Shown here: piece after piece, positions 8,291 through 20,747 of the stretch
How the letters are laid out: each line of letters begins with the position of its first letter
How positions within the stretch are numbered: position 1 is the first letter of the stretch
NCBI GenBank assembly: GCA_005239865.1
Contig: SBBC01000013.1
Coordinates: 36,759-100,758 of the forward strand
DNA length: 64,000 nucleotides
DNA from: Candidatus Microgenomatus auricola
GTDB lineage: Bacteria > Patescibacteriota > Patescibacteriia > SBBC01
Direction of reading: 5' to 3'
Program-made: the position numbers and the translations under genes
Notes under the pieces: model-generated
Told to the model about the DNA's origin: nothing
Seen by the model: only the letters and a program-made list of their open reading frames with translations
Databases searched by the model: none

Positions 8291-8449
8291 GGTAATAGTT
8301 CGTTGTTTCCAACATAAAAACAAAGAGCAAAGATGAAGGCCAGAGGTCTTCATCTACACAGATGACGATAAAACGTCTTCTCGGTAGTGGGCCTCTGGCC
8401 ATTCTCCATTTCCATCGGGGAATGCGCTTGTAGAGCCACCGCGTTTTGC

Positions 8450-9853
8450 ATGTCACACTTACGCCATCCGGTCATCCTCGTGTCCATCGTCGTTGGCGCT
8501 TTTTGTCTATTGATGAACCCGGCAGCAGCGAAGGAGGTTGGGGTGATGGCTCCAGAGGTCCGGGTCCTCAACCACAACGGCGCGGTCCAAACAACCTTTC
8601 AAGCCAACCATCAGAATTTTCACGGGGGCGTTCACGTGGCTGTCGGCGACATGGACAGCGACGGCGCAACGGAGCTTGTGACTGGACCGGGCGCCGGGAC
8701 GACACCGACGGTTCGCGTTTTTGAATTAGACGGTACGCTCATCAGGAGTTTTCTGGCTTACGGCGAAGGATTCCGCGGCGGCGTCAATGTGGCGGTCTAT
8801 GATCTTGACAGAGATGGAACCGCGGAGATCATTACCGGTCCCGGCCTCGGCGGCGGCCCCGAGGTTCGCGTCTTTCGGGCGGATGGCACACGCCTCGCCG
8901 CCTTTTTTGCTTTTGATCCAACATTCCGCGGCGGCGTCAATGTCGCCGCCGGCCGATTCGGCACCAACCGACAACCATTGATCGCGGCCGCCTCTGGATA
9001 CGGCGGCGCGCACGTCCGATTGTTTACACCAGCCGGGAAATACGCGGGTGTCAATCTTCGTCCCTTCGGTCAGGTTAGGCATGGCGTGGTGGTGGCCGAA
9101 CTTCCCGTCAACACTCACCGCTCAAAATTGGTGGCCATCCCCGAGCGATCGGCCGCGGCAAAAGTCGAGATCTACAATCTCGATTCGCCAACTAAACCGG
9201 AGCGCAGCTTTCACGGCGTACCGAAACGTTACGAAGCCGGTGCTCGACTCGCGATCAGTGACGTTGATCTCGATGGCGAACATGAGATCGTCGTCGGCAC
9301 CGGTCCCGGCAGCGCACCGCGCGTTCGCATCTTCAACACCGGCGGCAGACTGGAAAAAGACGTGGCGGCTTTTCGAAGCAATTTTCGTGGCGGACTGGCG
9401 GTGGCGGCTGGTCCGGGTATGGTCGTGGTTGGACCAGGCGCGGTTGATCTGGATGGTCGTCCAGACCTCTACAAGTACATCCAGATTGACCTTTCGAGGC
9501 AGACCTTAAAGTATTTTCAAAATGGTCGTCTCCTCAACACCCACCAGGTCTCGACCGGCAAGTGGGATACACCGACACCGATCGGCACGTTCGCCATCAA
9601 GAATCACATCGCGAATGCTTACTCGAAACGCTACGACCTGTATATGGAGTGGTGGATGGCGTTCAGTCCGGACGGGTCGTACGGCATTCACGCACTCCCG
9701 TATTGGAAAACGAAGAATGGCGGAAAACGTTACGAGGGGCAAGGACATCTCGGAACACCGGTGTCGCATGGCTGTATTCGTCAAACTTTGGCTGAAGCGA
9801 AGCGCCTGTACGCCTGGGCAGAAAACGGGACACCCGTGATCGTCAAGAAGTAA
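8450..9853 (+). CDS. Secreted FG-GAP-like beta-propeller protein with a C-terminal L,D-transpeptidase (YkuD) domain
   Basis: Signal-peptide-like N-terminus. About six repeats of 'RGGVNVAVxDxDxDGxxEIxxGPGxGxxPxVRVF'. C-terminal YkuD catalytic motif with 'HGCIR'. The ORF track starts at a GTG at 8387; an ATG at 8450 precedes the signal peptide. Confidence 0.75.
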   Translation: MSHLRHPVILVSIVVGAFCLLMNPAAAKEVGVMAPEVRVLNHNGAVQTTFQANHQNFHGGVHVAVGDMDSDGATELVTGPGAGTTPTVRVFELDGTLIRSFLAYGEGFRGGVNVAVYDLDRDGTAEIITGPGLGGGPEVRVFRADGTRLAAFFAFDPTFRGGVNVAAGRFGTNRQPLIAAASGYGGAHVRLFTPAGKYAGVNLRPFGQVRHGVVVAELPVNTHRSKLVAIPERSAAAKVEIYNLDSPTKPERSFHGVPKRYEAGARLAISDVDLDGEHEIVVGTGPGSAPRVRIFNTGGRLEKDVAAFRSNFRGGLAVAAGPGMVVVGPGAVDLDGRPDLYKYIQIDLSRQTLKYFQNGRLLNTHQVSTGKWDTPTPIGTFAIKNHIANAYSKRYDLYMEWWMAFSPDGSYGIHALPYWKTKNGGKRYEGQGHLGTPVSHGCIRQTLAEAKRLYAWAENGTPVIVKK

Positions 9854-9899: not shown

Positions 9900-11546
9900 A
9901 TGCGAAAAAACCCCTGGTTGAGCTTAGCGCTAATTCTCGTTCTGACCGTCGTCGTCGGTACGATCGATTACCCCCGTGGTCCTGATCTTCGAATCGGTCG
10001 CTATTTTAAAGAACTGAAAGTTCACCTGGGATTGGACCTCCAGGGCGGGACGCGTCTGATTTACGACGCTGATACCTCCACCATCCCGGAGCGAGACCGT
10101 GAAGACGCGCTCCAGGGCGTGCGTGACGTGGTTGAACGTCGCGTCAACGCCTTTGGCGTTTCCGAGCCGGTGGTCCAGACTAACCGTGTCGGTAGCCAGT
10201 GGCGGGTGTCAGTTGAGTTGGCCGGCGTGCGCGATATCAACGAAGCCATTCGCTTGATCGGGGAAACGCCATTTCTCGAATTCCGGGAAGAAACGCCACC
10301 AGTTCAACTTCGCACTGACGAGGAAGCCAAGGCCCGCGCTCAAGACGTCTTGCAGAAGATCGGTGCTCCCAACGCGGATTTTGCCGCTTTGGCAAAGGAA
10401 TTTTCCGACGACCCCGGATCGAAAGATCTAGGCGGCGATTTGGGCTTTGCTCGCCGCGGTCAATTCGTCAACGAATTTGAAGTCGCTCTCTTTGACGAAT
10501 TGCAAGACGGTGAGATTGTCAACCAGCCGATCAAAACGCAATTCGGCTACCACCTCATCAAACGGATTGAATCGCGAGCAATCGACGATGGGAGTGGAAA
10601 TCAGACAGCGGAAGTTCATGGCCAGCACATTCTCGTCGCCACCACCCAGCCACCGCCTGAAGGTAACTTTACCCCGACTAAACTGTCTGGAAAAAACCTC
10701 CGCCATGCAACTGTCCAGTTCGATCCAAATACCGGCGAACCGGAAGTCGGACTCCAATTTGATGACGAGGGAACGCAGCTCTTCGCCGACATCACCAAAC
10801 GGAACGTCGGAAAAAGCGTGGCCATTTACCTCGACGGTAGTCCGATCTCGATCCCCGTTGTCCAGCAGGAAATTACGGCTGGCACGGCCGTCATCACCGG
10901 TAACTTCTCACTGGCGGAAGCGAAGGTTTTAGCTCGGCGTCTCAATGCCGGCGCTTTACCCGTACCGATTATGCTCGTCAATCAGCAGACTGTCGGACCG
11001 AGCTTAGGAAAGGAATCGGTAGCGCGGAGTGTCTTCGCTGGCCTGGTTGGGATCTTGGCGGTGGCTGCCTTTATGGTGGCCTACTATCGTCTTCCCGGAC
11101 TCTTGGCGACCTTCGCCTTGGGACTGTATGCGCTCATCGTGTTGGCAGTTTTCAAGCTCTGGCCAATTACCTTGACGCTAGCTGGGGTGGCTGGATTTAT
11201 TCTTTCAATTGGCATGGCGGTTGACGCGAACGTTCTCATCTTCGAACGCTTTCGTGAAGAACTTCGGAGCGGACGCCCACTCCAGAGTGCGCTGGACGAA
11301 GGATTCCGGCGGGCCTGGCTCTCGATTCGCGATTCAAACGTCTCGACGCTCATCACCGCTCTTATTCTGGCCTGGTTCGGAACAAGTATTATCAAGGGTT
11401 TTGCCATCACGCTAGCCATTGGCATCATCGTCAGCATGTTTACTGCCATTTCCGTCTCGCGGACTCTCTTACGGGTGGTCGGAACGCAGTGGCTCGACCG
11501 TCGCCGAGGATTAATCGGCGCAAACATTCCGCCGGCATCATCCTAA
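9900..11546 (+). CDS. secD: Protein-export membrane protein SecD with a parvulin-type PPIase domain inserted in the periplasmic P1 region
   Basis: SecD start 'LGLDLQGG', P1 head and 6 C-terminal TM segments. Residues ~131-255 carry parvulin motifs ('GGDLGFARRGQFVNEFEVALF', 'GEIVNQPIKTQFGYHLIK'). Confidence 0.85.
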   Translation: MRKNPWLSLALILVLTVVVGTIDYPRGPDLRIGRYFKELKVHLGLDLQGGTRLIYDADTSTIPERDREDALQGVRDVVERRVNAFGVSEPVVQTNRVGSQWRVSVELAGVRDINEAIRLIGETPFLEFREETPPVQLRTDEEAKARAQDVLQKIGAPNADFAALAKEFSDDPGSKDLGGDLGFARRGQFVNEFEVALFDELQDGEIVNQPIKTQFGYHLIKRIESRAIDDGSGNQTAEVHGQHILVATTQPPPEGNFTPTKLSGKNLRHATVQFDPNTGEPEVGLQFDDEGTQLFADITKRNVGKSVAIYLDGSPISIPVVQQEITAGTAVITGNFSLAEAKVLARRLNAGALPVPIMLVNQQTVGPSLGKESVARSVFAGLVGILAVAAFMVAYYRLPGLLATFALGLYALIVLAVFKLWPITLTLAGVAGFILSIGMAVDANVLIFERFREELRSGRPLQSALDEGFRRAWLSIRDSNVSTLITALILAWFGTSIIKGFAITLAIGIIVSMFTAISVSRTLLRVVGTQWLDRRRGLIGANIPPASS

Positions 11547-11550
11547 ACCA

Positions 11551-12444
11551 ATGTATCGGATCATTCAAAAACGCAACTATCTGTTTGCCTTGTCGCTGGC
11601 GCTGTTGGTGCCTGGCATGATCGGCTGGTGGCTGTGGGGACTGCGACTGGGTATCGATTTTACTGGCGGGACGGTCATGACCGTCGTCATTCCCTCGGCC
11701 CCGACACCCGAAGAGGTAAAGACTGCCCTGAGCGCGACCGCATTTGGAAATGCCGTCATCGAACGCGCCGATAAAGATGAATATCTCCTCCGGCTTCCCC
11801 AGCTCTCCAACGAACAGCATGCATCATTAAATGCGACATTGACCAGCGCATTCACCGATGCCACAGAATTGGCATTCGAAACGGTTGGCCCGACGATCGG
11901 ACGTGAATTGAAACAGCGCGCGGTCGTAGCCGTGGTGACCGTCCTGGTTGCAATCATTCTTTACATCACCTGGGCTTTTCGAAAGGTTTCGTCCGGGCCA
12001 GTCCCGTCGTGGGTTTACGGATTGTCGGCTTTTGTCGCACTCCTTCACGATGTCTTCATGGTAGTCGGCGTCTTTGCTATTCTTGGCCATGTCTTTAAGC
12101 TCGAGGTCAATTCCTTGTTCGTCACGGCTCTGCTCACAGTTCTCGGTTTCTCCGTTCACGATACGATTGTGGTCTTTGATCGGATTCGTGAGCGTCTGCG
12201 CTTGAGTGCCGCGCGAACATTCGAGGACGTGGTCAACGAAAGCTTGAATCAAACCCTGGTTCGATCTCTGAATACATCCATCACCACCCTCCTCGTCCTG
12301 GTTGCGTTATTCATCTTCGGAGGAAGCTCAATTCGCTTCTTCGTTTTAGCCCTCATTATCGGGATTACGCTGGGTACGTACTCCTCGATTTTTGTCGCCT
12401 CACCGCTCTTGGTCGTTTACGAGCGGTTGCGGTCGCGACCGTAG
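11551..12444 (+). CDS. secF: Protein-export membrane protein SecF
   Basis: 297 aa. SecF topology and motifs ('GIDFTGGT', 'HDTIVVFDRIRE'). Confidence 0.9.
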   Translation: MYRIIQKRNYLFALSLALLVPGMIGWWLWGLRLGIDFTGGTVMTVVIPSAPTPEEVKTALSATAFGNAVIERADKDEYLLRLPQLSNEQHASLNATLTSAFTDATELAFETVGPTIGRELKQRAVVAVVTVLVAIILYITWAFRKVSSGPVPSWVYGLSAFVALLHDVFMVVGVFAILGHVFKLEVNSLFVTALLTVLGFSVHDTIVVFDRIRERLRLSAARTFEDVVNESLNQTLVRSLNTSITTLLVLVALFIFGGSSIRFFVLALIIGITLGTYSSIFVASPLLVVYERLRSRP

Positions 12445-12486: not shown

Positions 12487-12521
12487 CATTCGCCTGAAAG
12501 ACTCATGTGCGAATGTTTTTG
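12487..12521 (+). terminator. Rho-independent terminator candidate after secF
   Basis: Inverted repeat cattcgc...gcgaatg (7 bp) followed by TTTTTG. Confidence 0.45.
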
Positions 12522-12543: not shown

Positions 12544-12572
12544 TTGACAGAAAATGGATGATATGCTATATT
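12544..12572 (+). promoter_or_regulatory. Sigma70-type promoter, TTGACA-N17-TATATT with extended -10 (TGC)
   Basis: Consensus -35 and 17-nt spacer. The 'tgctatatt' forms an extended -10. About 30 nt upstream of the 12605 ATG. Confidence 0.6.
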
Positions 12573-12604
12573 ATACTTAGCTAAACCCATACAGTTCAAA
12601 CCAG

Positions 12605-13753
12605 ATGGAATCAAACGAAACGCAAGAAACGCGAAAAGTTTCCAACTCGATCCTTGATCGGGTGCTTTCGAGTCAGCAAGCCGCCGCGATTGAGCATTTT
12701 GTTCCGAGCGAGACGTTTTCTTCATTAGCACGATCGTTATTGGAAAAAGAGCATGATGTGCTCCGCCGGAGATTCGGCCTCCACGGTCAGGATCCGGAAA
12801 CACTCGAGGAAATCGGAAAATTATACGCCGTCACCCGCGAACGTATTCGTCAGATTGAAAATACGGGTGTTTTGAAAATGCTCCACGCGAAACACTACCG
12901 TGAGACGATCACCCCGGTCGAGCGGCTGCTCATGAACGTTTTTAACACCTACGGCGGCATCATCGAGGAGCAACTGTTTTTTCAAGAAACGTTGAGCCAC
13001 GGCGGTAACTCTCCGTCGGAACAACGGGCCCTGACCTTCCTGCTGACGAAACTCTTGACCCATCGTTTTAGCTACCATCCACCGGATCAGGAACTCCGTG
13101 CTAGCTGGAAACTCAAGGCCCAGTCACTGGAACTCGTACGTCAGGTGATCAGCGACCTCATGACCATCGTCCAAGAACGCCGCCAGCCGCTCTTGCGGGC
13201 GGAGCTCCTAGAAGCGTTCCGTGCCCGTCCGCTCTTCCAACGGCATGCTTCATTGTTGAACGACGAGGTTGTCAGTTCATACCTCAATCTGTCCGTCGCC
13301 ATCAGTCATAATCCCTTCGGCGAGTACGGCCTCACGACCTGGGGCACCATCATTCCGAAACGAATGAACGATAAAATCTACCTGGTTCTCAAGAAGGCCG
13401 GTCGGCCGCTCCACTTCACCGAGATTGCCAGACAGATTAATCAGACCGGATTCGACCATCGCCGGGCCTATCCGCCGACCGTACATAACGAATTAATTCT
13501 CAATCCCCAGTACGTCCTCGTCGGACGGGGGATTTACGCCCTGGCTGAATGGGGCTACAAACCCGGCGTCGTGGCCGAGGTCCTGGTCGACATTCTCAAA
13601 CAGGAAAATCGAGCCATGACGCGCGACGAACTGATCGATCGAGTAGCCAAACAACGACTGGTCAAGCGGAACACCATTCTCCTAGCCCTGACGAACAAGC
13701 AACTTTTTCGACGGCTAGCTTCGGGCGCGTATGAACTGGTCAAACAAACCTAA
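12605..13753 (+). CDS. DNA-binding protein with an N-terminal sigma-70 region-4-like HTH and a C-terminal HARE-HTH domain
   Basis: Region 4 signature 'LRRRFGLHGQDPETLEEIGKLYAVTRERIRQIENTGVLKM'. C-terminal 'YLVLKKAGRPLHFTEIARQI...VLVGRGIYALAEWG' resembles HARE-HTH. No sigma region 2 is present. Confidence 0.6.
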   Translation: MESNETQETRKVSNSILDRVLSSQQAAAIEHFVPSETFSSLARSLLEKEHDVLRRRFGLHGQDPETLEEIGKLYAVTRERIRQIENTGVLKMLHAKHYRETITPVERLLMNVFNTYGGIIEEQLFFQETLSHGGNSPSEQRALTFLLTKLLTHRFSYHPPDQELRASWKLKAQSLELVRQVISDLMTIVQERRQPLLRAELLEAFRARPLFQRHASLLNDEVVSSYLNLSVAISHNPFGEYGLTTWGTIIPKRMNDKIYLVLKKAGRPLHFTEIARQINQTGFDHRRAYPPTVHNELILNPQYVLVGRGIYALAEWGYKPGVVAEVLVDILKQENRAMTRDELIDRVAKQRLVKRNTILLALTNKQLFRRLASGAYELVKQT

Positions 13754-13763
13754 ATCTTGAACC

Positions 13764-15233
13764 ATGGAAATCATTCTCGATTTAAGCGGCGTCAGCGGTG
13801 CGCAGGGGATTCCGAACCCCCTGGCGGTCATGTGGACGCTCTTGACCCACGGTGGCTGGATCGCGCTCATTCCCGTTTTTTTGTGGGGTGGATTCGCCAT
13901 TTGGCTCAACTATATCCAGGGGGTCTACGCCATGCGACAAAAGTACGTACTGCTGGCGATCGATGTACCGAAAGAAAATGAATTAAGTCCTAAAGCCGTT
14001 GAGCAAGTTTTTGCGCACCTCTCGGGAATTTACAAGAGTGGGAATAAAAAAGAGCGGTACCTGCGGGGTTACCTCATGCCATCGCTGTCACTCGAACTGG
14101 TTAGTATTGAGGGATATGTCCAGTTTCTCATTCGTACTCCGGCAAAATTCCGCGACCTAGTCGAAGCGACCATCTACGCACAATATCCGAATGCCGAAAT
14201 TTCTGAAGTCGGGGATTATGCCACGGAATTCAAAGCCGAGTTCCCGAACGAGGAGTACGACATCTGGGGGACGGAGCTCAAACTGACGAATAAACAGCAC
14301 TACCCGATTCGGACCTACCCCATGTTCGAGCACTCACTGTCACAGACCTTCTATGATCCAATGGCTAGCATTCTTGAATTTTTTTCGCGGATGCAGCGGG
14401 GTGAACAAGTGTGGTTACAAATTGTTATCACACCGCCGCGGACCGATGATTGGCGCAAGGACGGAATGCGGCTTGTCAAAAAGCTGATTGGCGCACGCGG
14501 GGCGCCGTCTGGCATGCCCGGCTACGTCAACATCCCGTCACAAGTTCTCCGCGGGATCTATGAAACTGCGGCCGCCTCGGTGATTGCTCCAGGCACGTCG
14601 GAAGAACGCCGGAACGAAGAGAATCAACCACCGAGCTTAATGCTCCATCTCCCGCCAAACGAGCGAGCGGTGGTTGAACAGGTTGGCATGAAAATCTCTA
14701 AAATTGGTTGGTTAACGAAAATGCGGCTTATCTACATCGGTAAACACGGCGTCTTCACAAAAGACCGAATTTCGCCGCTCATGGGCGCACTGCGACAATT
14801 CAACACCCTCGACATGAACGGATTCACGCTCGACTCGAAGACCAAAACGAACATTGATTATTTTGTCAATCCACGGGTCAACTGGCGCAAACGTCGCCTG
14901 ATGCTCGGCTACAAGTATCGCAGCAACTGGCGTGGTCGCAATCTGTTCATCATGAACGTTGAAGAACTCGCCACAATTTTCCACTTCCCCGTGACGACGG
15001 TAGTCAAAGCACCGCGAGTTCAAAAGACCGAAGCCAAGCGCGGTGAGCCGCCGGCCGCGCTGCCAGTCGAATCGGAGTTTCAACGCGTCCGCCCGTTTAC
15101 GCCCGGCCAATCGGCCTTTCCGCCGCCAGCCGAGCGACCAGCGGTTGAACTGCCAACGATTGTCACCCCGCCAGAACTCAAACCGACTCCACCCCGCAAG
15201 GGTGGCCATGCCCCCGGTAATCTTCCGGTCTAG
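13764..15233 (+). CDS. Membrane-anchored hypothetical protein (one N-terminal TM segment and a Pro-rich C-terminal tail)
   Basis: TM segment 'GGWIALIPVFLWGGFAIWL'. No family recognised. Pro-rich tail 'PPAERPAVELPTIVTPPELKPTPP'. Sits 10 nt after the HTH gene and 12 nt before the ATPase gene. Confidence 0.45.
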   Translation: MEIILDLSGVSGAQGIPNPLAVMWTLLTHGGWIALIPVFLWGGFAIWLNYIQGVYAMRQKYVLLAIDVPKENELSPKAVEQVFAHLSGIYKSGNKKERYLRGYLMPSLSLELVSIEGYVQFLIRTPAKFRDLVEATIYAQYPNAEISEVGDYATEFKAEFPNEEYDIWGTELKLTNKQHYPIRTYPMFEHSLSQTFYDPMASILEFFSRMQRGEQVWLQIVITPPRTDDWRKDGMRLVKKLIGARGAPSGMPGYVNIPSQVLRGIYETAAASVIAPGTSEERRNEENQPPSLMLHLPPNERAVVEQVGMKISKIGWLTKMRLIYIGKHGVFTKDRISPLMGALRQFNTLDMNGFTLDSKTKTNIDYFVNPRVNWRKRRLMLGYKYRSNWRGRNLFIMNVEELATIFHFPVTTVVKAPRVQKTEAKRGEPPAALPVESEFQRVRPFTPGQSAFPPPAERPAVELPTIVTPPELKPTPPRKGGHAPGNLPV

Positions 15234-15245
15234 CCGCACGGTGCC

Positions 15246-16964
15246 ATGAAGCCCATTCAACCTTCACTCTCAACCGTCCCGACCGTCCTCCCACCGCTGC
15301 AGACGCAGCCGTCACATGAGGATCGGATTACCTACTTCGCGGAAACGAACTTTCACAACGTTCGCCGTAAGTTTGGCATTAAGACTGATGATCGTCGGCG
15401 TCACATGTATCTCATTGGCAAAACCGGCATGGGCAAGTCGACCGCATTGGAAAACATGGTCATGGCGGACATCAATGCCGGCAACGGGCTGGTGGTCATT
15501 GATCCGCTGGGCGACTTGGTGGAAAAAGTGATTGATTTCATCCCGTCGCACCGCGTCAACGACATCATTTACTTCAATCCAGCCGACTTCGATCATCCGG
15601 TCGCCTTCAACGTGCTCGAAGCTATTGATCCGAATCACCATCACCTCGTCGCCTCCGGACTGATCGCGGTCTTTAAGAAAATCTGGGTTGATTCCTGGGG
15701 ACCGCGCTTGGAATACGTTTTGCGCAACTGCATTCTGTCATTGCTCGAATATCCTGGCTCAACCTTGCTTGGCGTCACCCGCCTGCTGGTCGACAAGAGG
15801 TATCGCGCCAAGATCGTAGCGCGGGTGTCTGATCCGATTGTCAAGGCCTTCTGGGTCGACGAATTCGCCGCCTACTCCAACCAGTTTCGGACCGAAGCGA
15901 TTAGCCCGATTCAGAACAAGGTCGGTCAATTCCTGTCCTCATCGGTCATTCGAAATATCGTCGGTCAGCCCAAGTCCTCATTTGATCTCCGCTGGCTGAT
16001 GGACGAAGGCAAGATTCTCCTCATGAATCTCTCCAAGGGGCGCATCGGCGAAGACAACAGCTCGCTGCTCGGCGCGATGATGATTACAAAACTTCAGTTG
16101 GCGGCCATGAGTCGGATTGACATTCCCGAGTCCCAACGGCGAGACTTCTACATGTACGTTGACGAATTCCAAAACTTCGCGACCGAATCTTTCGCTACAA
16201 TCCTGTCTGAAGCGCGCAAATACCACCTCAACCTGATTATTGCCCACCAGTACATCGAGCAGCTCTCGGAAACTGTTCAGGCGTCGGTCTTCGGGAATGT
16301 TGGCACGATTGCCTGTTTCCGCATTGGTGCGGCCGACGCCGAATTCCTGGAGAAAGAGTTTGCTCCGATTTTTACGGAAACTGATCTCGTCAATCTGGCG
16401 AAATACGATATTTACCTCAAGCTCATGATCGACGGTATCGCATCTGATCCTTTTTCAGCCACCGGACTTCCGCCGATCGATCAGACCTACCAAAAAGAAG
16501 ACAACCGCGATAAAATCATTCGTGTTTCTCGTGAACGGTATGCCACACCCCGCACCGTGGTCGAGGAAAAAATAATGCGCTGGAGTGGCGTTGGCGAAAT
16601 CTTCCGAGGCAGCGCCGACGAAGAAAATACGGCTGCCCAACGCGAGCAACGTAGAGCCGCGGCCGTCAACGAACCACCAGCTAAACCAAAGCTTGATCTT
16701 GCTCGCGATGAGATTGTGGAAGAACCCACGGTCGTCGCCACACCACCGCCCATCTCGCTCAACGAAGCACTGAAGAAACCACCAGTCACGTTTGGACAGC
16801 CGAAATCACCAGCCCGGCCAGCCCTCCGTTTACCCGATCAGCGACCCACGCCGCCGACCAGACAATTTCGGGGTGAGCACCTGCGTCGACGACCGCCGCC
16901 TCCCATCCGCCCGGAACGACCGGCCCCAATTCCGCTACAACCAGGCAGAACCGTCCGACCGTGA
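15246..16964 (+). CDS. TraD/TrwB/VirD4-like (coupling-protein / HerA-FtsK superfamily) P-loop ATPase with a Pro/Arg-rich C-terminal tail
   Basis: Walker A 'GKTGMGKST'. An inserted all-alpha-like region. Walker B 'YMYVDEFQNF', then 'LIIAHQYIEQL' (the QS..QL-like motif of coupling proteins). No N-terminal TM domain. Confidence 0.55.
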   Translation: MKPIQPSLSTVPTVLPPLQTQPSHEDRITYFAETNFHNVRRKFGIKTDDRRRHMYLIGKTGMGKSTALENMVMADINAGNGLVVIDPLGDLVEKVIDFIPSHRVNDIIYFNPADFDHPVAFNVLEAIDPNHHHLVASGLIAVFKKIWVDSWGPRLEYVLRNCILSLLEYPGSTLLGVTRLLVDKRYRAKIVARVSDPIVKAFWVDEFAAYSNQFRTEAISPIQNKVGQFLSSSVIRNIVGQPKSSFDLRWLMDEGKILLMNLSKGRIGEDNSSLLGAMMITKLQLAAMSRIDIPESQRRDFYMYVDEFQNFATESFATILSEARKYHLNLIIAHQYIEQLSETVQASVFGNVGTIACFRIGAADAEFLEKEFAPIFTETDLVNLAKYDIYLKLMIDGIASDPFSATGLPPIDQTYQKEDNRDKIIRVSRERYATPRTVVEEKIMRWSGVGEIFRGSADEENTAAQREQRRAAAVNEPPAKPKLDLARDEIVEEPTVVATPPPISLNEALKKPPVTFGQPKSPARPALRLPDQRPTPPTRQFRGEHLRRRPPPPIRPERPAPIPLQPGRTVRP

Positions 16965-17761
16965 GGTGGCTGTGGGTTCTTTTCGCCGTCTGCCTGCTCA
17001 ACGTTCAGGCGCTGGATGTCGGTGAAGCGAAGACAAGTCCACGCCCATATTTGCCAACCATCACTCATTCCAGGGTGCTTGGTAGCGTCAGCTTCAGATT
17101 GCCAGTATTGCTCTATCACTATGTCCGGGAAATCCCTGACGATGACCCGCTCGGTGCCTCGCTCTCGATCACGCCATTGAATTTCCGCCGGCAACTTAAT
17201 TTCTTGCTCGAGAACGGCTACACGCCAGTCTCAATCAAGACGCTTGTCCGGGCCCTCGACGGCAGCGAAACTTTACCACCACGCCCAATCATCTTGACCT
17301 TTGACGATAGCACGGCTGATTTCGCTCAAACCGTTTTTCCGCTGCTATCCGCCTATGGTATCCCGGCCGTGGTCTTTGTGGTGACTGGATTTGTCGGAAC
17401 ACCCAACTATCTTTCGTGGAGCGAGATCAGAAAAATCTCGCGCTCGCCGTTAATCTCCATCGGTTCGCATGGACTGAATCATGTCAGTTTTACGCAACTT
17501 CCCGATCCAATCGCCGACCGTCAAATCCTCCTCTCCCGAAACATCCTGGCCGCCACCACCAACCAACCGATTGATTCCCTGGCGTATCCAAACGGAGCCT
17601 TCAACCAACGTACCACGACAAGCGTCAACCAAGCTGGGTATGACGTCGCCTTCACCGCCCGTCGCGGCGTGGTGCATGCGTCCGATCGCCGCTTCGAACT
17701 TCCACGCATCCGTCCCGGCGGTTCGGTTGATTCACTCGATCAGGCCCTAACGCCGCCGTGA
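16961..17761 (+). CDS. Secreted polysaccharide deacetylase (NodB homology domain)
   Basis: GTG start overlaps the preceding stop. Signal peptide present. Motifs 'ILTFDDS' and 'SHGLNH'. Confidence 0.75.
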   Translation: MRWLWVLFAVCLLNVQALDVGEAKTSPRPYLPTITHSRVLGSVSFRLPVLLYHYVREIPDDDPLGASLSITPLNFRRQLNFLLENGYTPVSIKTLVRALDGSETLPPRPIILTFDDSTADFAQTVFPLLSAYGIPAVVFVVTGFVGTPNYLSWSEIRKISRSPLISIGSHGLNHVSFTQLPDPIADRQILLSRNILAATTNQPIDSLAYPNGAFNQRTTTSVNQAGYDVAFTARRGVVHASDRRFELPRIRPGGSVDSLDQALTPP

Positions 17762-17766
17762 CTTGA

Positions 17767-18921
17767 ATGGGCAGTGGATATATGCTAAACTCCGGCGGTA
17801 TGCAGCCGAAGCGAATTTTTGTCGCACTCTCAGGCGGCGTTGATTCAGCCGTCGCCGCAGCACTCCTTCAACGCGACGGTTATGAGGTTCAGGGTGTCTA
17901 CCTAAAATATGCCTCGGAGATCGTCCACGGGTTGGTCAATACTAGGTCATGTTCATGGGAACAAGATCTTGAATCAGTTCGCGCTGTAGGGAAACAACTG
18001 AATATCCCGGTCCAGTCACTCAACGTCGAGCGCCAGTACAACCAGGCCGTGGTTGCGGCGTTCCTCCGAGAATACGCGACGGGTCGGACACCGAACCCCG
18101 ATATCCTGTGCAATCGAGATATCAAATTTGGGCTTTTTTTACGTTGGGCAAAAGAGCGCGGGGCAGACGCGATCGCAACTGGACACTACGCCCGGATTGG
18201 GATTTGGGAAGGACGGTCGGTGCTGCTGGCCGGCGCTGATCACGACAAAGACCAATCGTATTTTCTCTATGCGCTGCCGGCCGACCATCTGCCGAACGTT
18301 AGATTTCCGATCGGACATCTCACCAAGCCACAGGTTCGCCAACTGGCGAAAAAGTTTAGACTGCCGAATGCCGACCGCCCGGACAGCCAGGGTATCTGCT
18401 TCGTCGGTAACCTAAACGTTCGAAAATTTCTCGAGCGCTTTATTCCCTCACATCCCGGACCAATCATCACAACCGACGGTCAACTCGTTGGCCAGCATCC
18501 TAGTCTGTCATACTTTACGATTGGTCAACGTCACGGCCTGGGCCTCGGCGGCGGAGCTCCGTACTATATCGTGGGAAAAGATCTCAAACGAAATACGTTG
18601 TTGGTCAGTCGCGGCGCAAACGATTCAGCCCTCTATCAACGGGTGCTCCTGACGGGCGAAATTTCCTGGACGGCCGGACCGCCAGTCGACCACACCTTGC
18701 TGTGTCAAGCGCGAATTAGGTACCGTCAGCCTCTTGAGACTGCTCTTGTGGAGCGTCGCCGTGACGGAACGGCGGTCGTAACGTTTGCCCATCGGCAGCG
18801 CGCCATTACCCCCGGGCAGGCGATTGTGTTCTACCACGACGACCTCGTTCTCGGTGGCGCCGTCATCGACCGGGTGCTGGCGGTAGCACAACCGTCAAGC
18901 CGCCTGGCCCAATTCTCATGA
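17767..18921 (+). CDS. mnmA: tRNA-specific 2-thiouridylase MnmA
   Basis: PP-loop 'ALSGGVDSAVAA'. Catalytic Cys motifs match MnmA. An alternative start at 17800 is possible. Confidence 0.85.
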   Translation: MGSGYMLNSGGMQPKRIFVALSGGVDSAVAAALLQRDGYEVQGVYLKYASEIVHGLVNTRSCSWEQDLESVRAVGKQLNIPVQSLNVERQYNQAVVAAFLREYATGRTPNPDILCNRDIKFGLFLRWAKERGADAIATGHYARIGIWEGRSVLLAGADHDKDQSYFLYALPADHLPNVRFPIGHLTKPQVRQLAKKFRLPNADRPDSQGICFVGNLNVRKFLERFIPSHPGPIITTDGQLVGQHPSLSYFTIGQRHGLGLGGGAPYYIVGKDLKRNTLLVSRGANDSALYQRVLLTGEISWTAGPPVDHTLLCQARIRYRQPLETALVERRRDGTAVVTFAHRQRAITPGQAIVFYHDDLVLGGAVIDRVLAVAQPSSRLAQFS

Positions 18922-20747
18922 AAGCCCTAGCCTTACGAAAAAAATTTCTTGCCTATTTCCAAAAACAAGAACACGTCGCTGTTTCTTCCGCGTCACTGAT
19001 TCCGGACAACGACCCGTCAGTCCTTCTGACGGCGGCCGGGATGCAGCAGTTTAAGCCATATTTCCTTGGCCAACGTCGACCGGAGGAGGACTTCAAGAGT
19101 CGCCGATTAACTACAGTCCAGCGTTGTTTTCGAACGTCCGACATTGACACGGTAGGCGACGATTCACATTTGACGTTTTTCGAAATGCTCGGCAACTTCG
19201 CCTTCGGTGACTACGGCAAAGACGCGGCTATTCGTTTCGCCTGGCAATGTCTCACCCGCACGTTTCGAGTACCGGCCGGCCGCTTGTGGGCGACTATTTT
19301 TAGTGGTGACGAGCATTCCGTCAAGGATTTCGAGGCGTTCAAGGTTTGGCAGGCGATTATCCCACCCGAGCGAATTCGTGAATTCGGACGCCACGAGAAT
19401 TGGTGGGGGCCGGCCGGCCGTTCCGGTCCCTGCGGACCGTCGTCAGAAATCCACATCGACCTGCGAGAAACGCCTTGCGAGCGAAAGGAGCGGTGCGCAC
19501 CAAACTGCCCGTGCGGCCGGTTCCTCGAGCTCTGGAATCTTGTCTTCATGGAACATTTCCAGGATGAGGCCGGAAATTTTCGTTCACTCCCAGCAAAAAA
19601 TATCGATACCGGCATGGGACTTGAACGACTGGCGATGGTCACGCAAAAACGTTCGTCGGTCTTCGCGACTGACCTGTTTGTTCCAATTATTAACGCCATC
19701 GAGCAGGAACCTGGTTTTGGCAACGGACTCAGCCAAGCCGAGCGCAATCGTCGGTTGCGAATTATCGCTGACCACATCAAGGGAGCCGTCTTTCTGGTGG
19801 CTGACGGTGTTCGTTTTTCGAACAAGGAACAAGGCTACGTCCTTCGACGCGTCTGGCGTCGGGCACTCGACCAGTTTTCCACTCCATTAGCATCGTACCC
19901 AGGAGTGGTTGATGCAATCATCAATCTCTATCACCATCCTTACAACGAGTTGGGACGGCAGCGATCCGCCATCCACACGATCCTGCGGGCGGAAACCGAG
20001 GAGTACCTCAAGCACTTAAAAACGATTGTCGAACGCGTCAAAACCAAGCTACGCAAACGGCGCCCGCCGGCAGGGGACAATCAAGCACCGGTCACGGCGA
20101 CACTCAGTCCCAACGAGGCCTTCGAATTATTCACCACCTACGGAATTTCGCTTGACCGTCTGCGGCGCGAAGGATTCACCTTCGACGAGTCGGCGGTCGA
20201 GAAAAAATTTGCCGAGCACCGAAAGAAATCTCGAGCCGGGGCAGTCAAGAAATTCGGCGGACACGGACTCGGGTACACCCTTGATACCACAAAATACACA
20301 CCTGCTGAAACGGCACGCGCGACCCGCCTGCACTCGGCCACCCACCTGTTGCATCAAGCGCTTCGCCTCGTCTTGGGAAACCATGTTCGCCAAAACGGAT
20401 CAGACATTTCTCCAGAACGTTTGCGCTTTGACTTCCAGCACCCGACAAAACTTCGGCCGGATGAACTCCGAAAAATTGAAGACCTCGTCAACGAACAAAT
20501 CCGAAGAAACCTTTCGGTCACGCGGGTGGACATGGACCTTGAACAAGCACTCCAGTCCGGCGCCCTGTCTTTCTTCAAAGAACGCTATCCCCAACGAGTC
20601 ACGGTATATTCAATCGGCGAATTTTCAAAAGAAATTTGCGGCGGTCCGCATGTCCGGCAGGCCAGCGAGATCGGTCGACTGAAAATCATTTCGGAAAAAT
20701 CAAGCGCCGCCGGTGTCCGGCGAATCAAAGCAATCGTCGAGCCCTAA
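18918..20747 (+). CDS. alaS: Alanine--tRNA ligase, compact form lacking the C-Ala domain
   Basis: AlaS catalytic N-terminus and the editing HxxxH motif '[11 protein letters not shown]'. Only 609 aa. Confidence 0.85.

Follow-up and report, generated by a model that had tools for sequence, protein, structure and literature searches.

A DUF8128 membrane protein and a TrwB/VirD4-like ATPase encoded side by side in Patescibacteria as probable halves of one translocation ATPase

In this study, we analysed a three-gene module on contig SBBC01000013.1 of Candidatus Microgenomatus auricola, located within a stretch of 64,000 nt (hereafter, the window). Its open reading frames (ORFs), referred to as g1, g2 and g3 in their order, are arranged head to tail on the plus strand with intergenic distances of 10 nt (g1–g2) and 12 nt (g2–g3), exactly as an earlier description made from the DNA letters and their ORFs (the sequence-only reading) had placed them (Table 1). 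They encode a protein combining sigma factor region 4 with a HARE-HTH domain (g1), a DUF8128 membrane protein (g2) and a P-loop ATPase resembling type IV coupling proteins (T4CPs) such as TrwB and VirD4 (g3). Our results suggest that g2 and g3 probably encode, as its two halves, a membrane-anchored translocation ATPase of the VirB4/VirD4 branch of the FtsK-HerA superfamily, most likely a domesticated DNA-translocation motor working with a channel encoded elsewhere.

Patescibacteria account for a large share of bacterial diversity, and their core, phylum-enriched families are mostly unexplained. The g2–g3 pair represents one such family, with g3 being conserved beyond the SecD, SecF, MnmA and AlaRS proteins encoded nearby.

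Table 1. Module genes, protein segments, putative regulatory signals and neighbouring genes (window positions; aa, residues of the encoded protein; pLDDT, predicted local distance difference test score)
Feature	Position	Strand	Details
FG-GAP/YkuD protein gene	8387-9853		5' of secD
secD	9900-11546		5' of the module
secF	11551-12444		5' of g1
Putative secF terminator	12487-12520	+	7-bp stem CATTCGC/GCGAATG (12487-12515), 15-nt loop, TTTTT
Sigma-70-type promoter, extended -10	12544-12572	+	TTGACA-17-TG-n-TATATT; 11/12 positions match
g1	12605-13753	+	382 aa
g2	13764-15233	+	489 aa
g2 single transmembrane helix	13851-13919	+	aa ~30-52, by hydropathy; N-terminus out, C-terminus in
g2 cytoplasmic alpha/beta domain	13944-14990	+	aa 61-409; VirB4 N-terminal-domain fold; ends in invariant EELAxxxHFP
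g2 conserved linear segment	14991-15071	+	aa 410-436; VKAPxVxKxEAKRxEPPxxLP; near-invariant columns; pLDDT 56-65
g2 C-terminal tip	15210-15230	+	PPxNLP[FIV] (here APGNLPV); follows a variable Pro-rich linker
g3	15246-16964	+	572 aa
g3 Walker A	15417-15443	+	aa 58-66; GKTGMGKST; G58, K59, T60, G61, G63 and K64 invariant in 109 sequences
g3 Walker B	16152-16175	+	aa 303-310; MYVDEFQN; D306 and E307 invariant in 109 sequences
g3 tail helix	16752-16772	+	aa 503-509; ISLNEAL; S504, L505 and A508 near-invariant; pLDDT 79 versus 40-56 around it
g3 C-terminal tip	16932-16961	+	PGQxIxF type (here PLQPGRTVRP); C-terminal in most lineages; pLDDT 80
Polysaccharide deacetylase gene	16961-17761		4-nt overlap (GTGA) of its start with the g3 stop codon
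alaS	18918-20747		609 aa

The g2 and g3 proteins and their one-piece relatives

In Pfam scans, g3 scored above the cut-offs of TrwB_AAD_bind (50.0 versus 20.5 bits), T4SS-DNA_transf (36.2 versus 20.1 bits) and TraG-D_C (24.5 bits), and its best sequence match in the PDB was TrwB. A profile built from 109 g3 homologues aligned with TrwB of plasmid R388 at an hhalign probability of 94.7% over 265 columns, whereas its alignment with TrwK, the VirB4 protein of R388, was limited to Walker A and not significant (both sequences taken from NC_028464). At the level of fold, g3 is about equally similar to the VirB4 C-terminal domain, DptH and TrwB, with the C-domain-only VirB4 chain 4ag5 as top match; at the level of sequence, it resembles TrwB only. 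Besides both Walker motifs, g3 contains IAHQYIEQL, and key residues are invariant in the 109 homologues. No transmembrane segment was found, the maximum 19-aa hydropathy window being 1.27. The previous description of g3 as a TrwB/VirD4-like ATPase without a membrane domain consequently stood, also in the proposed hidden Markov model searches, where unrelated families remained below their cut-offs. KaiC, RecA, HerA and FtsK ATPases were rejected as assignments of g3, since they ranked well under VirB4, DptH and TrwB by fold and their Pfam scores were below cut-off. As regards HerA, the combination of a DUF87/HerA central domain above cut-off, an N-terminal HAS barrel and a NurA or other nuclease partner was not found.

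The sequence-only reading had interpreted the module as a split T4CP, in which g2 might supply the all-alpha module missing from g3. The split itself and the role of g2 as membrane partner are in line with our results. The model of g3, however, features an all-helical block at aa 129-239, in the interval that separates the two Walker motifs. The all-alpha domain of T4CP type is thus contained in the nucleotide-binding domain of g3 itself, and g2 was rejected as its source. Thus, g3 shares with T4CPs the FtsK-HerA-type P-loop domain with its Walker motifs and the all-alpha insertion, but differs from TrwB of R388, VirD4 and TraD/TraG by lacking an N-terminal transmembrane domain in the same polypeptide. 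The only transmembrane helix is found on the separate g2 protein, which moreover turned out to be more than an anchor.

The database protein identical to g2 (P0001) carries Pfam PF26449 (DUF8128), as do nearly all of the 120 g2 matches listed. The previously noted single membrane segment and Pro-rich tail were recovered, but the protein does not belong to an unknown family, as had been assumed. Our scans of NCBIfam and of a Pfam copy without PF26449 gave no match to g2, and no paper mentioning the name DUF8128 was found. The family comprises 2015 clusters at 50% identity, and its best 150 members all have a length of 340-690 aa. Lysine and arginine residues are more frequent after than before the transmembrane helix in 134/137 members (mean 2.1 versus 0.08), which, following the positive-inside rule, places the large domain of about 350 aa in the cytoplasm. 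In Foldseek searches with the AlphaFold2 model (pLDDT 84), the top 13 matches were all TrwK chains (E 2e-5 to 2e-3). The chain 4ag5, which contains only the VirB4 C-terminal domain, was not among the 60 g2 matches listed although it is present in the library; hence, the match of g2 is to the N-terminal domain of VirB4.

Taken by fold, the pair thus reproduces the two parts of VirB4, i.e., an N-terminal domain (g2) and a C-terminal ATPase domain (g3). At the sequence level, this likeness is not seen: the Pfam families CagE_TrbE_VirB, AAA_10 and P-loop_TraG matched neither g2 nor g3, the NCBIfam model VirB4_CagE (TIGR00929) reached 20.8 bits against a cut-off of 643, and hhalign comparisons with TrwK were not significant for either protein. 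As a sequence-level homologue of VirB4, g2 is undetectable, and the relationship rests on fold. In contrast to VirB4 proteins such as TrwK of R388 and VirB4 of T. pseudethanolicus, the two parts are encoded by two genes here, with an own transmembrane helix instead of a VirB3 partner; genes for VirB3, VirB6 or VirB8 were not found near g2–g3. Canonical T4CPs are not known to carry a VirB4-type N-domain.

That a VirB4-N-like piece can have a gene of its own beside that of its ATPase is known from TrsD/TraD of pGO1/pSK41, a small protein remotely similar to the VirB4 N-terminus and encoded just 5' of VirB4. TrsD homologues are abundant in Patescibacteria (PMC12102498). Unlike TrsD, DUF8128 has about twice the length, features a transmembrane helix and pairs with a T4CP-like ATPase rather than VirB4, and a sequence-level homology of g2 to TrsD was rejected (hhalign probability 0.5% versus pSK41 TrsD).

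Both proteins carry Pro-rich tails (26% Pro in g2, 21% in g3) with short conserved elements. The linear segment at aa 410-436 of g2, which is disordered in the monomer model, is a candidate docking peptide, and the tip motif of g2 is found in about 70/82 loci and in 18/20 diverse representatives. The tail of g3 is disordered, rich in Pro and Arg, and holds two conserved islands, namely the ISLxEAL helix and the PGQxIxF-type tip. As a side observation, EPPxxLP at aa 428-434 of g2 resembles an internal copy of its C-terminal tip.

In Firmicutes phages and plasmids, homologues of both g2 and g3 occur in one polypeptide. In PHROG 5156 (phrog_5156, 824 positions), g2 matches positions 35-199 and g3 positions 408-806. 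Likewise, the first 310 residues of gp156 of Bacillus phage G (825 aa) resemble g2 (BLASTP 3e-13; profile 9e-19) and residues 380-794 resemble g3 (2e-45; profile 6e-55). A protein of 886 aa from a 24.7-kb plasmid of Bacillus subtilis (WP_121549396.1) was matched by the g2 and g3 profiles with hhalign probabilities of 97.8% and 99.9%, respectively, and in an ORF of the Priestia megaterium plasmid pFDU301A, the transmembrane helix and DUF8128 are joined in frame to the beginning of the ATPase. Since these one-polypeptide homologues exist, we regard g2 and g3 as a split gene. Both halves are homologous in sequence and share the domain order; the Firmicutes proteins differ in being single polypeptides, mostly without a transmembrane helix, and in residing on phages or plasmids. 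They adjoin genes for Replic_Relax, actin-like partition proteins and, in the plasmid, TcpC and TcpE. More precisely, Replic_Relax, TcpC, TcpE and an ATP-binding protein are encoded 3' of the B. subtilis gene, which accordingly takes the place of the coupling protein within a Gram-positive conjugation module. In phage CP-51, only the ATPase half of gp91 is detected by the g2 and g3 profiles, with Replic_Relax 3' and an actin-like partition gene 5' of it, and ORF23 of phage D6E is also located downstream of an actin-like partition gene. All relatives outside Patescibacteria thus adjoin DNA partition or relaxase-like genes and, because of this, we infer DNA or nucleoprotein as substrate of the pair.

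Some further observations were made on these elements. In phage G, the fused gene stands in a row (L085, 1196-5840) with the gene of a VirB4-like ATPase (gp155) and that of an HNH endonuclease (gp157). The Priestia gene (L090, 4899-7214) is broken after about aa 525, with the ATPase continuing in a second ORF about 230 nt further on; this points to a pseudogene or to an inserted element. ORFs resembling sigma factors are located in the vicinity.

Conservation and genomic context in Patescibacteria

Synteny was examined in 80 species-level genomes with DUF8128, comprising Kerfeld-, Buchanan-, Magasanik-, Uhr-, Falkow- and Doudnabacteria as well as unclassified Parcubacteria. In 62/80 species, g3 directly follows g2, and at least four of the remaining loci end at contig edges. 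The median gap between both genes is about 3 nt, with many overlaps of -4 or -8 nt, and the two genes are probably translationally coupled. secD and secF are located 5' of the pair in 47/80 species and g1 lies between secF and g2 in 40/80; elsewhere, e.g., in Uhrbacteria loci, secF abuts g2. Look-ups centred on g1 returned the same order secDF-g1-g2-g3. Given the 40/80 loci and a median g1–g2 gap of about 76 nt versus about 3 nt, g1 is less tightly linked than g2 and g3 are to each other. The expectation that the trio would be conserved beside secDF was consequently borne out for the pair and, more loosely, for g1. A natural g2–g3 fusion was not found among 64 Patescibacteria loci examined.

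Across the matches listed, g3 shows 60-85% identity. In syntenic loci, it shares 58-75% with the window protein, compared to 46-63% for SecD, 37-52% for AlaRS and 39-49% for MnmA, making it the most conserved of the neighbourhood genes compared. Plasmid-borne T4CPs are expected to be conserved far more weakly than the pair, for which identities amount to 58-85%. A further difference to T4CPs is the chromosomal location of g2–g3 and its wide distribution across Patescibacteria lineages, with no relaxase or type IV secretion system (T4SS) genes nearby. In line with the earlier statement that relaxase, VirB4 and pilus genes are missing from the neighbourhood, no T4SS, relaxase or pilus domains were detected among the remaining window ORFs scanned, and neither VirB4 nor TrsD is encoded within +/-7 kb of the pair in the 80 species. 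The other window genes are housekeeping genes (murein synthesis, secA, ribosomal proteins, glycosyltransferases, mreB, aminoacyl-tRNA synthetases), and the nearest database proteins belong to Candidatus Kerfeldbacteria and other Patescibacteria. A foreign island was rejected, as the GC content is uniform over 8-22 kb (0.50-0.57), and so was a viral origin of the Patescibacteria form (one weak match in 2.9 million viral contigs).

Due to housekeeping context and phylum-wide conservation, a role in anti-phage defence was also rejected, the PADLOC matches of g3 to mad8/HerA being weak; the MzaA match of g1 is restricted to sigma region 4. Consistently, no Dnd or other defence genes are found near g2–g3, unlike for DptH/DndH of phosphorothioation-dependent restriction, and the pair occurs widely across the phylum.

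The gene order raises the option that the pair serves protein export or envelope biogenesis together with SecDF/SecA or envelope proteins instead of translocating DNA. In fact, species of several candidate phyla share the position directly behind secD-secF, with secA and the gene of a YkuD transpeptidase further upstream, some T4CPs recruit proteins, and in this genome the gene of a secreted polysaccharide deacetylase overlaps the end of g3. This overlap, however, occurs in a lineage-specific addition to the transcription unit, since the deacetylase gene is downstream of g3 in just 2/84 loci; the earlier statement that the module runs into the deacetylase, mnmA and alaS holds for the window, but the deacetylase is not part of the conserved unit. 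The synteny may simply reflect inherited gene order, the locus of Southlakia epibionticum (see below) is not beside secDF (Wang et al. 2023), and the relatives outside Patescibacteria all adjoin partition or relaxase-like genes. Altogether, we consider a role in export improbable.

Published transposon sequencing data are available for S. epibionticum, a genetically tractable relative which appears to carry a corresponding unit of SEML1_0294 followed by SEML1_0293. SEML1_0294 (349 aa; Sigma70_r4 at aa 27-72, HARE-HTH at aa 225-283) is essential (Wang et al. 2023, Tables S1-S2). SEML1_0293 is located directly 3' of it on the same strand and encodes 921 aa, of which TrwB_AAD_bind covers aa 402-719 and the P-loop region aa 361-795; both genes are flagged as core, Patescibacteria-enriched families (Wang et al. 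2023). The order of a sigma-r4/HARE-HTH gene directly 5' of a TrwB_AAD_bind ATPase gene is therefore the same as in our module. The N-terminal extension of SEML1_0293 of about 360 aa has the length expected of a transmembrane helix plus DUF8128, and the domain coordinates presumably indicate a fused form, i.e., a single protein in contrast to g2–g3. SEML1_0293 was called non-essential, with normalised reads falling from 5817 via 2940 to 1372 while its neighbours stayed flat (Wang et al. 2023).

These data also bear on a possible replacement of FtsK/SpoIIIE, in which the pair would act as chromosome-segregation pump at the septum. The common superfamily, the membrane anchor and the actin-like partition genes near the phage and plasmid relatives would fit such a function. 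Nevertheless, S. epibionticum, as the one genome considered, keeps an essential full-length FtsK (alpha, beta and gamma domains) belonging to a core family (Wang et al. 2023), and g3 reached only 13.5 bits with FtsK_SpoIIIE (PF01580; cut-off 24), so that the FtsK set of a motor domain above cut-off, alpha and gamma domains and a 4-TM region was not recovered. This replacement was thus rejected as highly improbable.

Possible roles of the g2–g3 pair

How might the two proteins act together? The single transmembrane helix, with its N-terminus outside, and the cytoplasmic domain of VirB4-N type are supplied by g2. The RecA-type motor, which resembles that of TrwB, is supplied by g3, together with the all-alpha insertion and a full set of catalytic motifs. 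In the proposed mechanism, which is modelled on TrwB and VirB4, both proteins presumably form a ring at the inner face of the membrane, possibly a hexamer, and the conserved tail peptides may tether the complex. Driven by ATP, such a ring could thread a polymer, with DNA or nucleoprotein as the most likely candidates, and pass it to or from a channel encoded elsewhere, either the Patescibacteria T4SS or ComEC. The one-piece coupling ATPases found on plasmids and phages of Firmicutes would be the ancestors of the pair or share an origin with it, and in Patescibacteria the pair has turned into chromosomal core genes.

Several points weigh against this interpretation. The likeness of g2 and VirB4 is confined to structure, with low Foldseek TM-scores (~0.33), which implies a different domain arrangement, and is not significant at the sequence level by hhalign or hmmsearch. 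In about 14/80 loci, g2 is followed by genes other than g3. With one transmembrane helix per g2 subunit, the complex cannot itself be the channel, so that a separate one is needed, and the locus contains no identified relaxase, nuclease or channel gene. The fused nature of SEML1_0293 is deduced from domain coordinates, not from sequence, and the dispensability of this likely Saccharibacteria counterpart in co-culture is odd given the extreme conservation of g3.

A first alternative would be a function of the pair as the T4CP of the Patescibacteria T4SS, encoded away from virB4 and recruiting proteins or DNA for export to the host. The sequence homology of g3 to TrwB and the coupling-protein position of the fused B. 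subtilis relative before Replic_Relax, TcpC and TcpE support this option; the T4SS cluster of S. epibionticum is without a recognisable coupling protein (PMC10633639), and T4CP genes are often located away from virB4 (PMC12102498). In 2,918 Patescibacteria genomes, however, merely 148 of 5,713 VirD4-like homologues were found near virB4 (Quinonero-Coronel et al. 2025, PMC12102498), no VirB4 was found around the pair in the 80 species or in the window ORFs scanned, and a VirB4-type N-domain is not known from canonical T4CPs. Furthermore, the T4SS is essential in S. epibionticum and so is the T4CP-like paralogue SEML1_0142 (1019 aa, P-loop at aa 381-800; Wang et al. 2023), which may be the real T4SS coupling ATPase, whereas SEML1_0293 is not; a plain T4CP role is hence disfavoured and, in our view, somewhat unlikely. 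Ahead of SEML1_0142 lies SEML1_0141, which is small, hypothetical and likewise essential.

A second alternative is natural DNA uptake, with the pair standing in for ComFA and pulling DNA through ComEC in cells that scavenge nucleotides. The annotation tables of S. epibionticum name ComEC, which is non-essential, and a ComFC-like protein, but no ComFA (Wang et al. 2023). comEC and SEML1_0293 are both dispensable in co-culture, dprA and topA are situated a few genes from SEML1_0293/0294, and the mobile-element relatives lie beside DNA-processing genes. The case is, however, purely circumstantial: the absence of ComFA is judged by names, linkage to comEC was not seen in the 80 loci, and the phenotypes differ, as comEC reads stayed flat while those of SEML1_0293 fell fourfold. 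An uptake motor of this kind therefore appears rather unlikely.

Going beyond a domesticated DNA-translocation motor, the pair could represent an ancient third lineage of T4SS ATPases, in which an N-domain of VirB4 type is coupled to a motor of VirD4 type. In such a scenario, the N-domain would predate the divergence of VirB4 and VirD4, the protein would have been split in most Patescibacteria with the tail peptides as tethers, and it would now operate independently of a T4SS as the missing cytoplasmic motor for DNA import or another membrane-bound DNA process of these nucleotide-auxotrophic cells, with g1 as DNA-side adaptor. We regard this broader scenario as unlikely.

The status of the ATPases as 'orphan T4CPs' in Patescibacteria is already known, and their exaptation has been suggested as possible (PMC12102498). 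The partner protein and secDF were not discussed there (Quinonero-Coronel et al. 2025), and there is apparently no earlier description of the partner's identity, of how split and fused forms are related, or of the connection to mobile elements of Firmicutes. Together with the unit in S. epibionticum, the fold of the DUF8128 N-domain and the one-piece equivalents of Firmicutes turn the orphan ATPase into a concrete, testable machine, which is also relevant for the divergence of VirB4 and VirD4. Should DNA uptake or a T4SS role turn out to be true, the pair would further bear on the acquisition or delivery of macromolecules by epibionts.

The g1 protein, regulatory signals and neighbouring genes

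The domain assignment made for g1 was confirmed by Pfam matches to Sigma70_r4 (aa 44-92, E 1e-10) and HARE-HTH (aa ~253-316, E 9e-9; 36 bits versus a cut-off of 25.9). A third, probable winged helix at aa ~325-375 gave a weak signal. Sigma regions 2 and 3 were not matched in Pfam at E <= 0.1, and NCBIfam sigma models matched via their C-terminal ~60-90 positions only, far under the cut-offs; lacking region 2, g1 is not a sigma factor. The RNA polymerase delta model TIGR04567 reached 24.2 bits and thus remained under its cut-off of 42, so that a HARE-HTH domain is present but membership in the delta subunits is not established. The combination of both domains, previously described as unusual, proved common in Patescibacteria: it is found in all but one of the best 120 g1 matches listed, the family is widespread in the phylum, and the essential core gene of S. 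epibionticum shows the same architecture.

We consider g1 to be a DNA-binding protein that is possibly associated with RNA polymerase. Since the essentiality of its S. epibionticum counterpart is independent of the ATPase, it probably acts as a general factor that binds DNA or is associated with RNA polymerase, with an essential role that would apparently be independent of the g2–g3 motor. A connection of g3 with g1 is hinted at by the distribution of the tail helix ISLxEAL, which occurs in 17/32 loci with g1 adjacent but in 2/24 without (Fisher p = 5e-4), a comparison confounded by phylogeny.

Upstream of g1, a promoter and a secF terminator had been proposed. Promoter-like sites in the region are no more frequent than in shuffled sequence (3 observed versus 3.2 expected), and a single match is therefore at chance level. 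A TTGAC[AT]-17-TGnTAT... motif, however, recurs between secF and g1 in 15/16 relatives, including one Doudnabacteria genome, which argues for a real promoter. For the terminator, the support is weaker: the stem was predicted by RNA folding with a z-score of -1.3 and was not reported by the terminator scan, leaving it plausible but weak.

Downstream of the module, the deacetylase gene is followed by mnmA, a short alaS, infA and ribosomal protein genes. Some of the neighbours show peculiarities of their own. SecD carries a parvulin/PpiC-type peptidyl-prolyl isomerase domain inserted at aa 136-224 (Rotamase_3, E 6e-22), between SecD_1st and the P1 head, and the same fusion occurs in the related Patescibacteria loci L002, L003, L086 and L087. 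The gene 5' of secD encodes a protein with FG-GAP repeats and a YkuD L,D-transpeptidase domain; it keeps its position in several relatives and is preceded by secA in some. AlaRS consists of the catalytic core and tRNA_SAD, with no further Pfam domain behind tRNA_SAD, and at 609 aa is much shorter than typical bacterial AlaRS, the relatives having likewise a length of 595-609 aa.

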